Below are positions 2,688-36,679 of a stretch of DNA of 43,002 nucleotides, in pieces (within the stretch, counting starts at the first letter, position 1; each line of letters starts with the position of its first letter). Source of the DNA: a virus (Duplodnaviria; Heunggongvirae; Uroviricota; Caudoviricetes); IMG/VR virus record IMGVR_UViG_2740892012_000013, positions 1 through 43,002 of that record; one strand, written 5' to 3'. Under the pieces are notes generated by a model that saw nothing but the letters and a program-made list of their open reading frames with translations, had not been told where the DNA came from and made no database searches. A program made the position numbers and the translations under genes.

Positions 2688-3078
2688 CGCCTTTTCTCCC
2701 AGGAATTAACTGGCGTGGATTATCAGAACGGTGATAGAGCCATATACCAATTCGCACTGCGACAATTGCTGACACGAATGCGCCAGCAGAGAAAACAATC
2801 CCTTTCTCGAAAGAGTCCTGCGTGATGGTAGGTATCATGCTGGCTATTCCGATAAGAATTGATGTTGTTGGTTTGTAAAAGAGAAGACCACAAAGAAAGC
2901 TGAGTATCGACAAGAGTACACGACGACGAACAGGATACTCTACAGCAGAGGTAACAAATATTACCGCACCAGCCAGAGCACCGAGAGCCACCTCTGGCGG
3001 AACGCCGTAGACGACAGAGGCCAGCGCACCCAAGCTTAACCCTTGATTCAGTGAATCCGCCGTAACCGTGCCATTCAT
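2677..3078 (-). CDS. Second lysis-cassette membrane protein (holin/antiholin-like)
   Basis: Multi-TM, Gly/Ala-rich hydrophobic protein; ATG at 3078 has SD GGTGG 5 nt upstream; overlaps next holin start. Confidence 0.5.
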   Translation of the reverse strand: MNGTVTADSLNQGLSLGALASVVYGVPPEVALGALAGAVIFVTSAVEYPVRRRVLLSILSFLCGLLFYKPTTSILIGIASMIPTITQDSFEKGIVFSAGAFVSAIVAVRIGIWLYHRSDNPRQLIPGRKGDGN

Positions 3079-3175
3079 GGTAACCACCGTTTATTGTGCA
3101 TAAAAACCCCCTTAGAAGATGAGGTCCATCATACACAATAAACCATTTACGGATAATAATTACCTAAATTTGGTC

Positions 3176-5827
3176 TTATTTTGATTCCAATAGTTCGAGT
3201 CGCTCTTCAATACGATCGCATCGACGGCGCTGATATGCAGCCTCAAGCCAAGCGCACTGGTCAGGCCGTATACCCCATGAACTACCCGCTTTTTTAACCA
3301 GCCTCTGTTCTCCGGTGTCATATTCGACGGTGACCAACTCACCAGACGTATCGGTAATCTCTTTAGTCGCGATTACCGGCTCAAAAATATCATCCCACTC
3401 GTCATAGCAAAGAAGGCCAAATCTGGTTCCATCAATTCCGTGCGCCAAGAATACATCCCTTACCTGCTGAGCCATGACGCCAAAATGCCATCTGGCACCA
3501 TCGCCCTTCATGGATATAGCGTCGAGCCATCGATACGCCACAACAGAAATATCGCCCCAGGCATCAAGAATGCTGTCTCTATCAGAAGAAAGCATTTCAC
3601 TTAAATCTGATATTGCCTCGGGATTGGTTTTCAGCGTGGCATCTGATGAAACGGTTGGGGCATTTGCAAAGTAGGCGTCTTTAATACGAAACGATGCCTG
3701 ACCAAAATTATAGGTATTGTCAGCAAACGGGCGAAGACCTGTATCATAAAACCGCCAGCGTATGGTTCCTCCCAATGCTGTCGGGTCGCTGTTGCATGCA
3801 ATATCCACCGTGGTGGCAGACCTAAACACAGAAGAACTACCGCCCAATACCAAGCTATTTGCGCTAGCTGTAGCCTGCTGGTCAAGGACCAATATTTTCT
3901 GAGAGTTTGTAGTTGCACCGGCATATGATGATGCAGTGATGCGGTTTAATTGGTTTGTATCAGGATCTGCGTTTTGCTGAATGGTTAAGTTAGATGCCCA
4001 CTGTGCCGGTCGCTGGCGCACAAATACAAAGTCACCAGAAGGATTAGTTGCAACCAAATAACTAATGCCACTATCAGATGAATAATAGTTGACTATAAAA
4101 GTCTGATTATTCGCATTCAGTATTTCAACATATGTGCTGGAAGGGATTGCCACGCCAGATATATCAGCAATGCTGACAGTCCCTGTGTAAAAATTAAATG
4201 CCTTCTGACTCATCTCCTGCATATAGCGAAGAATTTCAGTCATGTTAGTGAACAACGTACCATCTACAGGGTTAACAATCCCCTTCGCACTACGGGGATA
4301 TACCCCAATGCTCGCGTGATCGATATCAAATCCGCGGTAAAGCCTGGATGCAGGTGTAAAATCGATAGCATCTTTATCAGTGGAGAAATCTTCGAAAATA
4401 ACCAAACCTGAATTGTAAGGTTCAGAGCCAGTTCTTTCCTGATGAATGTAAAGTGAATAAATGGATTTTCCATCCTGAGAAACACAAACGCCTTCATTTT
4501 CTATGCGAGTGACGTTCAATCCTGCGGCTTTCATTAAATCCATCATGGCCTGAGGATGAAGCATTGATTCAGTTCGCTTTGTACCGTCAGGGTTAAAAAC
4601 TTTGCTGCCCTGATATTCGTTATATCCTGCGCTTCCTGCCCCATCAGCTATGAAGCCGCCATAGCCGCAGACAAAGTAGTTATCACCTACCGCAATACCC
4701 TGACGCTTGTTGAAATAAGGCGCATAAGGTGAGGTGCTTTTAGTTACATACCCAACATCATGTAACGGCAGCGTTATAGTTGACAGGCGATTGAAACCAC
4801 TGTCGAACACTGCAAGTACAGTTCTTGTGATTTTCTGTCCTACTTCTGGCGCATTCTGCTCAACGAGCCATATACCTCTTCTGTAGCTGAACTGGTTGAA
4901 TAATCCAACATCATGGTTTTGTACAAGAGGCAGATTGCTTCCGTATAATGCCCCCTCCATATTAAATTCACGCAGTATTCCGTTTGTGTGACCAACAAAC
5001 ATTTTTTTGGGGCCATAGTCTGACGTAACCACGATTCCTTCAGCAGCGAAGCCTGGGCCGCCAGCCTGAACATAGAAATAACCTTGATAAATACCAGATA
5101 TGTTAAATACTGCGACGACATTATTCGTCTGTTTAGGCTCAAATGGATAAGTGATGTATATCAAATCTTCGCTAACGCAGAATCCTTGAGGATACATATA
5201 AGTTGCTGACGGGTTAGCAGCCATAATCGCATCATATTCAGGAAAAAGAAGCGGCATCGTAGCTACAATCTTTCTTTGGTGATTTGTAAAAATATCGTTT
5301 TTAGCGCTGTTAGGTGTAGGCGTTACACCTCCAGTAAAAAGATCATCAACATAACCTTTATTGACAGCATCGTTTCTGTCAGTGGCATTTGCTAGATTTG
5401 ATATCTTATTATTTTTTGCATCATAATAGTTAGCCAGAATGCTTGGTTTTATAAGTGCTAACCTCATCCATGAAAAACACTTTTGAATAAGCATTGTCAG
5501 TTTATCGAACGCGTCTTCATGTACCTCAGCGAAGAACTTACCCTGATTACGCAAATCAGTATCCTGCGTAACCGGGAGCTCTCGTGATATAGAAATATGA
5601 TAACCGTTAGCCAACGCCTTCGACAGAATTACATTACCGCCATTATATCCTCCAGCATTGGTTACTGTGTAGTCAGTATCCAGAACCAATTCTGTTACGT
5701 TCCCGTTCAGGTCAGACACCTGAACAACCAGGTCGGATTTTTTGAAAATACGGAAGGTATACGGAAATGATGTCGTAGCTCCGTTACCGGTGTATTCGTT
5801 GTGGTCAACTTCGGTTGAGACCGTCAT
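3176..5827 (-). CDS. Tailspike/tail fibre with central receptor-binding or depolymerase region and C-terminal intramolecular-chaperone-like domain
   Basis: 883 aa; N-terminus MTVSTEVDHNEYTGNGATTSFPYTFRIF resembles conserved podovirus tailspike particle-binding domains (from memory); SD GGAGAT upstream; C-terminal ~150 aa look like a self-cleaving chaperone module. Confidence 0.8.
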   Translation of the reverse strand: MTVSTEVDHNEYTGNGATTSFPYTFRIFKKSDLVVQVSDLNGNVTELVLDTDYTVTNAGGYNGGNVILSKALANGYHISISRELPVTQDTDLRNQGKFFAEVHEDAFDKLTMLIQKCFSWMRLALIKPSILANYYDAKNNKISNLANATDRNDAVNKGYVDDLFTGGVTPTPNSAKNDIFTNHQRKIVATMPLLFPEYDAIMAANPSATYMYPQGFCVSEDLIYITYPFEPKQTNNVVAVFNISGIYQGYFYVQAGGPGFAAEGIVVTSDYGPKKMFVGHTNGILREFNMEGALYGSNLPLVQNHDVGLFNQFSYRRGIWLVEQNAPEVGQKITRTVLAVFDSGFNRLSTITLPLHDVGYVTKSTSPYAPYFNKRQGIAVGDNYFVCGYGGFIADGAGSAGYNEYQGSKVFNPDGTKRTESMLHPQAMMDLMKAAGLNVTRIENEGVCVSQDGKSIYSLYIHQERTGSEPYNSGLVIFEDFSTDKDAIDFTPASRLYRGFDIDHASIGVYPRSAKGIVNPVDGTLFTNMTEILRYMQEMSQKAFNFYTGTVSIADISGVAIPSSTYVEILNANNQTFIVNYYSSDSGISYLVATNPSGDFVFVRQRPAQWASNLTIQQNADPDTNQLNRITASSYAGATTNSQKILVLDQQATASANSLVLGGSSSVFRSATTVDIACNSDPTALGGTIRWRFYDTGLRPFADNTYNFGQASFRIKDAYFANAPTVSSDATLKTNPEAISDLSEMLSSDRDSILDAWGDISVVAYRWLDAISMKGDGARWHFGVMAQQVRDVFLAHGIDGTRFGLLCYDEWDDIFEPVIATKEITDTSGELVTVEYDTGEQRLVKKAGSSWGIRPDQCAWLEAAYQRRRCDRIEERLELLESK

Positions 5828-5930
5828 GTTAAATCTCCAGATAGTCGCAGCACCCGTTGCGCCGCATATCTGGTTATTCTATTACCTGGAAAACCACATA
5901 TGGATAGAAAGGCTGTAAATACGAATAGAT

Positions 5931-5947
5931 ATTACCTTTCAGGTAAT
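5931..5947. promoter_or_regulatory. Operator-like 17-bp palindrome ATTACCTTTCAGGTAAT (perfect)
   Basis: Perfect 7-bp inverted repeat with 3-bp spacer; one of about 12 related sites in the window; in the divergent region between tailspike and the 6023 gene. Confidence 0.6.
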
Positions 5948-5983
5948 TTGCAAAACGTGCTGGATAGCAAACAAATTATTTGC

Positions 5984-6003
5984 TACTGTATAAATATACA
6001 GTT
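5984..6003. promoter_or_regulatory. LexA (SOS) box candidate TACTGTATAAATATACAGTT
   Basis: CTGT-N8-ACAG with AT-rich spacer, about 17/20 to the E. coli consensus TACTGTATATATATACAGTA; ends 20 bp upstream of the ATG at 6023. Confidence 0.65.
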
Positions 6004-6022
6004 ATTGCATGGAGAAGATAAG

Positions 6023-6280
6023 ATGCAGCAGTATCACTATCCACTGGAAGACGGATTTACCGAAAGGATTCACACGCCGGGAGGCGTCAGGTCACTGGTG
6101 GAGGGATCGCACTTGATGAAATTACTCCGGGATCTCGATAAGGATGGATTTAATGTCGATGGCCCACTTGCCGAACTGACTGCACTGATTAACTACGTCA
6201 CCAGCTCACAGATGTCTATGCAGGATCTGCAAACACATCTCGACTATTGTGCCGAACAATTACGAAAACAAACCACATAA
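6023..6280 (+). CDS. Small protein homologous to the shared C-terminal domain of the two antirepressors (ORF6C-like); candidate SOS-controlled antirepressor module
   Basis: SD GGAGAAG before ATG; 85 aa ...RIHTPGGVRSLVEGSHLMKLLRDLDKDGFNVDGPLAELTALINYV... aligns with ...SLIHSPSGVLGLTENSLLMNLLNQLQEDGHDVSGAAAELTTMFCYIV... of 7749-8444 and 9710-10648. Confidence 0.5.
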   Translation: MQQYHYPLEDGFTERIHTPGGVRSLVEGSHLMKLLRDLDKDGFNVDGPLAELTALINYVTSSQMSMQDLQTHLDYCAEQLRKQTT

Positions 6281-6286
6281 AGAAAA

Positions 6287-6302
6287 GGCCGCGAAAGCGG
6301 CC
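6287..6302. terminator. Hairpin GGCCGCGAAAGCGGCC between convergent genes (bidirectional terminator candidate)
   Basis: Perfect 6-bp GC stem with GAAA loop just after the stop at 6280 and just before the stop at 6304; identical hairpin recurs at 9643-9658. Confidence 0.45.
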
Positions 6303-6303
6303 A

Positions 6304-6810
6304 TTAACAGTCGTAAAATTCTGGGTCCCACAAACTTGCATCGCGCGGCATGGATTCTAACTTTTTCAGCCGCAAAATTCTGTCACACTCGACAACTAAT
6401 TTTTGCTTCTGCTCGTCAATTTCTACTGTCTTATGCGCTGGTTCATCCCAATAATCCAGAAGGAAGGCATGGCGTTCAGATGTGACCAGATAAATCACAT
6501 ACACGTCACTGGTTGGGATCTTTTTATGCTTGTTAGTGGTCTTGTCTTTCTTCCCAGACGCCCAGTTTTTCCAGCATTGTTCCGTACCGCTCTCACCAAA
6601 CTTGTCAGTATAGTTTCCGATGTTTAAGTGAACGTGGCGTATGTGATATTCCAGCATCTCTTTCGGTGGATCTCGAAACAGAGTGTCCTTTCCGAAATCC
6701 TTATGATGACCGTAGCGCCAGTGATCTATGAACGCGTTTTTGATAGGTATTAGCTCAGGGTCCTTCCCAAAAATTCCAGGGTGAACCAACCCCTGGAATT
6801 TATTCGGCAT
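6304..6810 (-). CDS. YafO-family-like toxin candidate (paralog 1)
   Basis: From ATG at 6810: ...FIDHWRYGHHKDFGKDTLFRDP...HIRHVHLNIGNY...YVIYLV...AFLLDYWDEPAH; pattern matches my recollection of E. coli YafO (GRDALYD...RVAHIHL...HLVYC...WLLIAILKPEPH). Paralog of 8881-9393. Confidence 0.55.
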   Translation of the reverse strand: MPNKFQGLVHPGIFGKDPELIPIKNAFIDHWRYGHHKDFGKDTLFRDPPKEMLEYHIRHVHLNIGNYTDKFGESGTEQCWKNWASGKKDKTTNKHKKIPTSDVYVIYLVTSERHAFLLDYWDEPAHKTVEIDEQKQKLVVECDRILRLKKLESMPRDASLWDPEFYDC

Positions 6811-7327
6811 CGTCGTAGAGCTCCTGAGCCATGTCTTCAGCAGTGCGTGCAAACATCCTGCGCGAGATTGCATGGGATTTCTCTACGGACATCTTTGGGA
6901 CCTCATGCATAACAAGTTGATGAGTTTTCTCATCAACTTGAAGTGGCTTGTATAAACGTTGCCACCTTTCGTTAATTTTATCCTTAAAGCCAGCGAAACC
7001 ACTTTCCTGACTCTTGTATCCAAAATGAGATAAAGCCAAATTCCTTTCCATTTCATTCCTAATGTACTCAGCAAGGTTGCAGTGGAATACTTCCCCTTGT
7101 TTTTTTAGGCATGCTTCATGGTCTGTAACACTGTGACGGCTCTCATATAAGTAAATGCGATAGGAATTTTTATTATCCTCTTCTTCATAATTTCTAATCG
7201 CATCAGCAGTTGCCATAGCTGCAGCATAAGCGGCTGCTTCAATCACCATCTCTTGCTCTTTTTCTTTTTCAGGCCTTTTCAAGGCAAAGCGTCTATGCCT
7301 CATCGCTGTAACTCTCTTCGTGTTCAT
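6800..7327 (-). CDS. Hypothetical protein, upstream partner of YafO-like paralog 1 (candidate antitoxin/regulator)
   Basis: ATG at 7327 with SD GGGGGTG; 175 aa, acidic C-terminus; 3' end overlaps toxin-candidate start by 11 nt; no family recognised. Confidence 0.45.
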   Translation of the reverse strand: MNTKRVTAMRHRRFALKRPEKEKEQEMVIEAAAYAAAMATADAIRNYEEEDNKNSYRIYLYESRHSVTDHEACLKKQGEVFHCNLAEYIRNEMERNLALSHFGYKSQESGFAGFKDKINERWQRLYKPLQVDEKTHQLVMHEVPKMSVEKSHAISRRMFARTAEDMAQELYDDAE

Positions 7328-7338
7328 GGGCACCCCCA

Positions 7339-7355
7339 ACTACCTTTAGGGTAAA
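7339..7355. promoter_or_regulatory. Operator-like palindrome, imperfect (ACTACCTTTAGGGTAAA)
   Basis: Matches ATTACCT-N3-AGGTAAT at most positions; immediately upstream of the 7327 start. Confidence 0.4.
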
Positions 7356-7463: not shown

Positions 7464-7480
7464 ATTACCTTTGCGGTAAA
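7464..7480. promoter_or_regulatory. Operator-like palindrome (ATTACCTTTGCGGTAAA)
   Basis: Left half-site perfect, right half 5/7; in the 7328-7748 divergent intergenic region. Confidence 0.45.
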
Positions 7481-7571
7481 TTTACATTGCACTCCTCTTG
7501 TGCCATAGTAATCGGGCACTGGCAAAATCCAGTGCCGGGATTGGCGTTCCGGATTACTAAAAGGCGCATTC

Positions 7572-7591
7572 ACCGCGCAAGCGGTTTTTTT
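7572..7591 (+). terminator. Intrinsic terminator-like hairpin inside the 5' intergenic region of the Bro-N gene
   Basis: ACCGC-GCAA-GCGGT stem-loop followed by TTTTTTT; preceded by a longer hairpin (GGCACTGG...CCAGTGCC at about 7515-7540). Confidence 0.5.
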
Positions 7592-8509: not shown

Positions 8510-8526
8510 ATTACCTTAAAGGTAAA
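8510..8526. promoter_or_regulatory. Operator-like palindrome ATTACCTTAAAGGTAAA
   Basis: Near-perfect inverted repeat about 40 bp upstream of the 8568 start codon. Confidence 0.55.
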
Positions 8527-27163: not shown

Positions 27164-27240
27164 GTGGCATTAGCTCAGTTGGACAGAGCAACCGCCTTCT
27201 AAGCGGTTGGTCGCAGGTTCGAATCCTGCATGCCACGCCA
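27164..27240 (+). tRNA. tRNA-Arg (anticodon UCU, reads AGA)
   Basis: Folded by hand: 7-bp acceptor stem GTGGCAT/ATGCCAC, D-arm GCTC...GAGC, anticodon stem ACCGC/GCGGT with loop CTTCTAA, T-arm GCAGG-TTCGAAT-CCTGC, discriminator G, encoded CCA. Confidence 0.9.
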
Positions 27241-36634: not shown

Positions 36635-36679
36635 AGCTATTGCCTGATATTTATTTCAGATAATAAATATTCACCCATA

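Follow-up and report, generated by a model that had tools for sequence, protein, structure and literature searches.

Can a two-gene cassette of a temperate phage, in which a YafO-like protein is encoded downstream of an unrecognisable 175-aa partner, act as a toxin-antitoxin (TA) pair, and which part of the partner would then serve as the antitoxin? The question is raised by a 43-kb stretch of viral DNA (43,002 nucleotides), referred to here as the window. It represents a temperate epsilon15/phiV10-like E. coli podophage and matches the phages EC.W1-9, TL-2011b, and phiV10. Sequence comparison and structure modelling make it likely that the cassette is a YafO-family type II TA-like module whose antitoxin is new and modular.

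Genomic setting and gene layout

The cassette is located in an accessory region, with a tail-fibre/tailspike gene (3176-5827, minus strand) on one side and the antirepressor region on the other. The 1.1-kb cassette region recurs with 100% identity in E. coli strain 2/0, as part of a chromosomal prophage, and in two other complete genomes. Partner and toxin ORFs are both encoded on the minus strand and overlap by 11 nt (ATGCCGAATAA). The cassette contains the following features:

6800-7327, minus strand: partner gene, putative antitoxin (phrog_9503); ATG at 7327, 175 aa
6304-6810, minus strand: toxin gene, long-form YafO-family with predicted RelE/HigB fold (phrog_1651); ATG at 6810, 168 aa
7357-7386, minus strand: candidate sigma-70-like promoter; -35 TTGCCA at 7386-7381, 18-nt spacer, -10 TAGAAT at 7362-7357
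6821-6825, minus strand: AGGAG Shine-Dalgarno sequence of the toxin gene, within the last codons of the partner gene, 10 nt 5' of the toxin ATG
6279-6302, minus strand: intrinsic terminator-like hairpin, GGCCGCTTTCGCGGCC plus T-run; GC-rich, 1-2 nt past the toxin stop codon; also delimited as 6302-6287

The initial annotation had placed two overlapping ORFs at these coordinates, and RefSeq (PGAP) makes the same two calls in the identical prophage of strain 2/0, the names given there being 'YafO family toxin' for the downstream gene and 'hypothetical' for the upstream one. Both products belong to PHROG families, the toxin to phrog_1651 (E 7e-46) and the partner to phrog_9503 (E 4e-65). Between the diverged loci L004 and L011, synonymous codon differences far outnumber non-synonymous ones, with 56 versus 5 in the toxin gene and 14 versus 2 in the tail-encoding part of the partner gene. 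Because of the PHROG membership and this excess of synonymous changes, the two genes are not considered chance ORFs. Phrog_1651 and phrog_9503 are phage protein families of unknown function.

The promoter-like sequence matches the consensus at 10 of 12 positions in a consensus scan and is kept in related loci. Judging from the Shine-Dalgarno sequence inside the partner gene, the toxin gene is translationally coupled to it. With a promoter, two coupled genes, and a terminator, the cassette is therefore compact and self-contained.

The downstream protein and its relationship to YafO

The downstream protein had initially been read as YafO-like on the basis of four motifs, all of which are present in the translation of 6304-6810: GKDTLF (residues 40-45), HIRHVHLN (56-63), YVIYLV (104-109), and LLDYWDEPAH (117-126). 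A relationship to PF13957 had also been put forward, and this holds for the family profile but not for the single sequence. As single sequences, the toxin scores 17.6 bits (E 0.004) and its paralogue encoded at 8881-9393 scores 19.7 bits (E 0.00095), both below the gathering threshold of 25 bits. An NCBIfam search with the toxin gave no match, and in a BLASTP comparison with YafO of E. coli K-12 (NC_000913) only the FG[KR]D region aligns.

A profile search among 1.84 billion representative proteins returned 75 clusters at E<=0.001. Nine long multi-match proteins among them (385-3067 aa) were rejected as repeat-driven false positives, since the five that were scanned (385-1017 aa) are RCC1-repeat proteins. 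With these artefacts removed, the long-form phage-borne YafO branch comprises about 65 clusters at 50% identity among the same representatives. PF13957 is matched at E<=0.01 by 31 of 51 full-length relatives of the toxin, with a best E of 7.8e-25. When the alignment of the 51 relatives was compared with 16 canonical YafO sequences using hhalign, a probability of 98.7% (E 2e-16) was obtained over 122 columns, covering residues 4-132 of the 134 residues of YafO. A narrow alignment of nine toxin sequences gave 68% (E 4.8e-5) in the same comparison.

The residues F27, G40, H61, Y107, and H126 are invariant among the 51 relatives, and D42 is nearly invariant. Toxin positions correspond to YafO positions as follows: F27 to F25, G40-K41-D42 to G39-R40-D41, H59/H61 to H60/H62, T100/D102 to T80/D82, Y107 to Y88, and H126 to H109. 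The AlphaFold2 model of the toxin is confident (pLDDT 89.4, pTM 0.86). It is closest to HigB, YafQ, and RelE toxins and is predicted to adopt the RelE/BECR fold. A Foldseek search of the model against the BFVD viral structures gave nothing at E<=0.001, and no solved structure for the toxin family was found by sequence.

Profile homology, the core residues (FG[KR]D, HxH, Y, PxH), and the predicted fold thus agree, the single sequence staying below the Pfam threshold, and the YafO-like reading is upheld. On these grounds, the downstream protein is assigned to the YafO family as a divergent long-form member. The family annotation is correct and not new, as the NCBI label of both the toxin and its paralogue already reads 'type II toxin-antitoxin system YafO family toxin'.

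The upstream partner protein

The upstream protein had been described as lacking any recognisable antitoxin signature, which was confirmed. Searches of Pfam, NCBIfam, and PDB sequences, the last with both the single sequence and the profile, gave no match, and no HTH, RHH, Phd, or AbrB domain was detected. Even with E values of up to 1, no RHH or other Pfam family was matched by any of 18 partner homologues. PADLOC reported three weak matches to mutually unrelated families (E 3e-4 to 4e-3). Partner homologues were also sought on plasmids, and none were found.

Structure prediction, suggested in the initial annotation as a further route to the partner, yielded no confident fold. The AlphaFold2 model, calculated from a 20-sequence alignment, shows no compact fold (pLDDT 58.9, pTM 0.21); it contains a long helix (residues 20-50) and two better-supported C-terminal helices (148-160 and 163-174). 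Homologues of 162-175 aa consist of a conserved basic N-terminus with an Ala-rich helix (residues 1-50), a variable region (51-139), and a nearly invariant tail (140-175), which is encoded as follows:

6803-6910, minus strand: conserved C-terminal tail codons, residues 140-175, VMHEVPKMSVEKSHAISRRMFARTAEDMAQELYDDAE; proposed toxin-neutralising module

Eight further database matches (142-155 aa) have only the tail in common, with 44-89% identity, and carry a different N-terminal body. Crude codon counts put pN/pS at about 0.02-0.09 in the tail, compared with 0.25-0.85 in residues 1-50 and 0.5-1.4 in the middle region. The new element of the system is this short constrained tail joined to swappable bodies, in a partner family that has no annotation anywhere. 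The upstream protein is probably the antitoxin of the YafO-like toxin.

Homology between the tail and the C-terminus of YafN was suspected by eye, as EITRRAEQYLNDMTDDDFNDFKE resembles AISRRMFARTAEDMAQELYDDAE. The comparison was made with 27 distinct YafN sequences taken from yafNO loci in bacterial genomes. With the tail HMM, real YafN received lower scores than thousands of shuffled versions of it, and hhalign returned a probability of 0.1-0.2% for tail versus YafN. A column-permutation test anchored at the C-terminus was mildly suggestive (p about 0.01-0.02). No homology is claimed, and the search for a YafN-type (Phd/YefM) cognate antitoxin was negative.

A second pair and related phage loci

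The same window contains a second, paralogous pair at 8568-9393, which was overlooked in the initial annotation:

8568-8894, plus strand: second partner, 108 aa (phrog_5933), with the same C-terminal tail motif as the first partner
8881-9393, plus strand: second long-form YafO-family toxin candidate, 170 aa (phrog_1651), 46% identical to the first toxin

The two genes overlap by 14 nt. BLAST detected no similarity between the first and second partners, but their tails align from the C-terminus (VPKMSVEKSHAISRRMFARTAEDMAQELYDDAE versus IKKLSSAESKEISFRQLNSLETHMKEEEFDVFE).

A total of 42 loci were retrieved from IMG/VR by scanning it with the toxin alignment. In each of them, the toxin ATG lies within an upstream ORF, with an overlap of 11 or 14 nt; this ORF terminates in E followed by the stop codon and has the same tail motif at its end. 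The bodies of these ORFs (108-175 aa in total length) fall into at least six unrelated classes, while their tails form four classes that follow the toxin clade. Correlation with toxin identity (Spearman) is 0.73 for the tail versus 0.44 for the N-terminal part. In 15 pairs of loci, the tails are at least 80% identical and the bodies less than 30% identical; the reverse was found in none. Tail conservation and the covariation of the tail with the toxin clade are indirectly in line with toxin binding and neutralisation by the partner. The covariation may, however, reflect mere physical linkage, as the codons of the tail lie directly next to the toxin gene.

More distant relatives were represented by seven long-form YafO genes, for which nine loci were fetched. 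An upstream ORF of 56-65 aa without a Pfam match is called in eight of these, and in the ninth (L087) the corresponding ORF is readable in the DNA but not called. The tail motif was recognised in seven of eight small ORFs, with L082/L083 aligning poorly, and the 60-aa upstream ORF of phage TL-2011b (L001, 4972-5151) aligns to it as well. The small ORFs of TL-2011b and of loci L079, L081, and L084 occupy the same position as the partner and either overlap the toxin gene or lie close to it. They share with it the C-terminal motif h-[ST]-x-x-E ... h-S-x-x-h ... aromatic-D/E ... end. The partner in the window is three times longer than the small ORFs and has about 110 extra residues before the tail, which differ between loci. 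Since the small ORFs align to the tail motif, the ancestral partner of the family appears to have been little more than the tail, with the 175-aa protein being an expanded version.

The gene layout is that of type II TA systems, namely small, adjacent, co-oriented, and overlapping genes with the putative antitoxin first and the pair conserved. This bears on the possibility that the cassette does not function as a TA system at all, in which case the YafO-like protein would be non-toxic or recruited for another phage role, and the partner would be an unrelated co-transcribed gene. The single-sequence Pfam score below the threshold and an insertion of about 20 residues relative to YafO are in line with this possibility. 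However, the residues conserved with YafO are invariant or nearly so, both genes are under strong purifying selection, and the two genes are paired, with overlapping start and stop, in all 42 loci. A non-TA cassette is thus regarded as highly improbable, the least probable of the readings considered here.

Operator-like sites and regulation

The operon had been noted to sit next to operator-like sites. Such sites do exist, but they are distributed across the phage and are not specific to the operon. The palindrome TTACC-N5-GGTAA (allowing one mismatch or none) occurs in 14 copies in the window compared to 0.73 expected. The copies closest to the two pairs are:

7340-7354, no strand assigned: operator-like palindrome located between the -10 and the partner ATG; minus-strand sequence TTACCCTAAAGGTAG, deviating from TTACC-N5-GGTAA at one position
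7465-7479, no strand assigned: operator-like palindrome in the divergent isrK/C4/ant promoter region
8511-8525, no strand assigned: perfect TTACCTTAAAGGTAA palindrome, 42 nt 5' of the second pair

Paired copies at 36671/36719 and 37431/37493 flank an HTH_3 repressor-like gene (36789-37373). The 36671/36719 pair faces a divergent Cro/CII-like ORF, and the overall layout is OR/OL-like. Further copies precede other early and accessory genes. In related loci, a palindrome is located no more than 260 nt upstream of the partner gene in 38 of 42 cases, whatever the partner class. The palindromes apparently serve as operators for the repressor (or Cro) that the phage itself encodes. A search for inverted repeats unique to the promoter region of the operon was negative. 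A TA-specific operator was rejected as a candidate; the repeats reported at the promoter region belong to the isrK RNA. As a phage-wide operator lies over the transcription start, expression of the cassette appears to be wired into the prophage repressor circuit and not to be under autoregulation by the antitoxin. The arrangement differs from that of a DNA-binding antitoxin controlling its own operon through an operon-specific operator.

This difference weighs against the proposal that the tail is a small dimeric RHH-like DNA-binding domain regulating the operon, with another part of the partner, or nothing, neutralising the toxin. The proposal draws on an alternating polar/hydrophobic stretch (K-M-S-V-E) followed by two helices of about 12 residues that are joined by a short loop with a conserved Ser/Thr; this strand-helix-helix periodicity is the analyst's reading and not a tool result. 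Besides the missing operon-specific palindrome and the failure of all 18 partners to match a Pfam family, the partners of 56-65 aa contain little besides the tail. Moreover, nearly identical toxins are accompanied by a fixed tail and very different N-terminal and middle parts. An RHH-like role of the tail is accordingly rated as quite improbable.

The position of the operator is, in turn, an argument for a function in the lytic cycle. The prophage repressor would keep the cassette off, and at infection or induction the RNase would be switched on and reprogramme or shut off host translation. The partner would be a timer or inhibitor and not an addiction antidote. The palindrome between the -10 and the ATG, its presence beside the repressor-like gene and before other early and accessory genes, and its recurrence in 38 of the 42 loci all fit this proposal. 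Conversely, the proximal site carries a mismatch in the window and is absent in L006, L015, and L017-L019, and nearly every relative of the toxin has an upstream partner, as would be expected of a TA pair. A lytic-cycle function is therefore considered unlikely, albeit less so than an RHH-like tail. If the repressor does shut the promoter in lysogens, a classical module of stable toxin and labile antitoxin would be awkward to maintain.

Proposed mechanism and biological role

In the favoured TA-like reading, the long-form YafO-family toxin would most likely stop growth through cleavage of mRNA at or close to the ribosome, and the upstream 175-aa protein would be its cognate antitoxin. The last 36 or so residues of the partner, predicted to form two short helices, would bind and block the toxin. 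The N-terminal and middle regions, which are poorly structured, fast-diverging, and swappable, may serve as a linker, a degradation handle, or a sensor. Expression of the cassette would be gated by the general operator of the prophage over the transcription start. The biological role may be prophage stabilisation, abortive infection, or a repressor-gated function in the lytic cycle.

Abortive infection would be a specialised form of the TA explanation rather than a contradiction of it. The cassette would act as a prophage defence module in which the variable region of the partner senses, or is targeted by, an invading phage, thereby releasing the YafO-like RNase. The cassette has its own promoter and terminator and lies in a variable accessory region; relatives occupy equivalent accessory slots of other phages, and one prophage contains two insulated paralogous pairs. 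Diversification is consistent with sensing too, as pN is at or above pS in the middle region and at least six unrelated N-terminal classes are found on the same tail, although a disordered linker also diverges rapidly. An operator over the transcription start, which suggests repression in lysogens, would be unfit for a standing defence. The PADLOC-DB 2.0 models matched neither of the two toxins, and the PADLOC matches of the partner are weak and inconsistent. A literature search covering the phage family, its partner, and YafO-based phage defence found no paper. A defence role remains doubtful on balance, although it is given somewhat more credit than a lytic-cycle function.

A more far-reaching version of the modular reading views the partner as a new class of antitoxin, in which a YafO-clamping tail of about 36 residues is combined with interchangeable sensor or decoy modules for phage (or host) factors under repressor gating. 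This version is speculative and, like the lytic-cycle function, more likely wrong than right by a wide measure. If true, the cassette would encode a toxin of temperate podophages that is wired to the repressor, diversified in its sensor, and used for abortive infection or as an induction checkpoint.

Implications

YafO is among the least studied toxins of the RelE superfamily, and there is no solved structure of it. Its ribosome dependence is unsettled (PMC11980606). Within the YafO family, the present analysis defines a long-form branch that is carried by phages. With its constrained tail and freely swapped N-terminal parts, the partner offers a clean system for studying both the minimal neutralising element and the role of the variable part. 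The two insulated paralogous pairs and the general phage operator lead to testable predictions on cross-talk and on the timing of prophage toxin deployment. In practical terms, putative antitoxin would be a possible annotation for the 'hypothetical protein' encoded upstream of PGAP 'YafO family toxin' calls.

Comparison with known systems

The closest reference is YafN-YafO of E. coli K-12, a type II TA system in the chromosomal SOS operon dinB-yafNOP, with YafO being a PF13957 mRNA interferase. In Pfam, there are 13 families of BECR-fold monodomain TA toxins, among them YafO, which degrades mRNA (PMC11980606). The phage toxin is homologous to YafO over nearly the whole length of the latter and shares FG[KR]D, HxH, TxD, Y, and PxH with it, and the gene order of antitoxin followed by toxin is the same. 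In contrast to YafO, the phage toxin is about 35 residues longer, with the insertion of about 20 residues (about 70-91) and a C-terminal extension. The partner, unlike YafN, is not of the Phd/YefM type and has no significant similarity even to the YafN C-terminus. The cassette is phage-borne and its genes overlap, whereas yafN and yafO are 2 nt apart. By these comparisons, the system is not YafNO in the strict sense.

The structurally closest toxins, HigB2 (5mje), HigB1 (7nbu), HigB (6af3), YafQ (4q2u), and RelE (1wmi), are ribosome-dependent RNases of the RelE/ParE superfamily, and their identity to the phage toxin is only 10-17%. In higBA, the toxin gene comes first (PMC11980606). The antitoxins of HigB, YafQ, and RelE carry HTH or RHH DNA-binding domains, neither of which was detected in the partner.

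Like P1 phd-doc and other prophage TA or abortive-infection modules, the cassette is a two-gene toxin/antidote unit of a temperate phage, with the antidote role being putative. It differs from phd-doc in that the proteins are unrelated, the promoter carries a phage-wide operator, and autoregulation by the antitoxin is presumably absent. The neighbouring locus with C4 antisense RNA and ant is also P1-like.

Putative toxin pairs and their relatives

The phage carries a second toxin pair, which lies on the plus strand:

8568-9393 (+), partner (phrog_5933), 108 aa, and long-YafO toxin candidate, 170 aa, with a 14-nt overlap

The toxin of this pair is paralogous to that of the first pair, with 46% identity. 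A C-terminal tail motif is the sole likeness between the two partners, and since they are otherwise unrelated, the two modules in this single prophage are apparently insulated from each other.

In the related phage TL-2011b, a YafO-annotated gene is preceded by a 60-aa ORF with a 26-nt overlap (ORF and gene together: 4972-5671), and this ORF is the minimal form of the partner. The slot of the first pair (3003-4091) has no annotation in that phage beyond a misc_feature, 'similar to hypothetical protein', and is possibly a decayed pair.

Two metagenomic toxin variants, P0009 and P0010, are truncated or frameshifted past approximately residue 110, and an unrelated IEMLAC forms their C-terminus; they may be toxin genes in decay. 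Nine proteins of 385-3067 aa (P0139, P0141, P0144, P0146, P0151, P0153, P0157, P0158, and P0162) match the long-YafO profile in 3-11 stretches each. All five that were scanned (P0141, P0144, P0146, P0158, and P0162) are RCC1-repeat proteins, and all nine are therefore rejected as repeat-driven false positives, which any long-YafO family count should leave out.

Antirepressor modules near the toxin pairs

The following elements are located close to the toxin pairs:

5900-6280 (+), small ORF (RefSeq call: 6023-6280), phrog_450, E 2e-47
7516-7591 (+), isrK Hfq-binding sRNA, 72 bits
7616-7701 (+), C4 antisense RNA, 78 bits
7749-8444 (+), Bro-N antirepressor gene (Ant)
9710-10648 (-), second antirepressor gene, P22 type (P22_AR_N)
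10650-10717 (+), sar antisense RNA match, 45 bits, barely over threshold

isrK and the C4 RNA are positioned directly 5' of the Bro-N gene, an order of the same type as in the immI region of P1/P7, here within an epsilon15-like podophage. The phage is thus predicted to encode two distinct antisense-controlled antirepressor modules within 3 kb. The small ORF, which is convergent with the first-pair toxin gene, resembles antirepressors in their C-terminal part only, a module that it shares with the C-terminal end of Ant. It has its own upstream TTACC-N5-GGTAA site at 5932.

A tRNA gene is located at 27164-27237 (+) (Rfam tRNA, 73 bits).

A phage-wide palindrome

TTACC-N5-GGTAA occurs at 14 sites in the window, compared with 0.73 expected:

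5932, 7340, 7465, 8511, 26827, 30008, 30026
34326, 34388, 36334, 36671, 36719, 37431, 37493

An HTH_3 repressor-like gene (36789-37373) has paired sites on either side, in an OR/OL-like arrangement. Accessory-gene promoters, among them those of both toxin pairs, carry single sites. This set probably represents the operators of the prophage repressor, and can be likened to the many scattered operators of phage P1.
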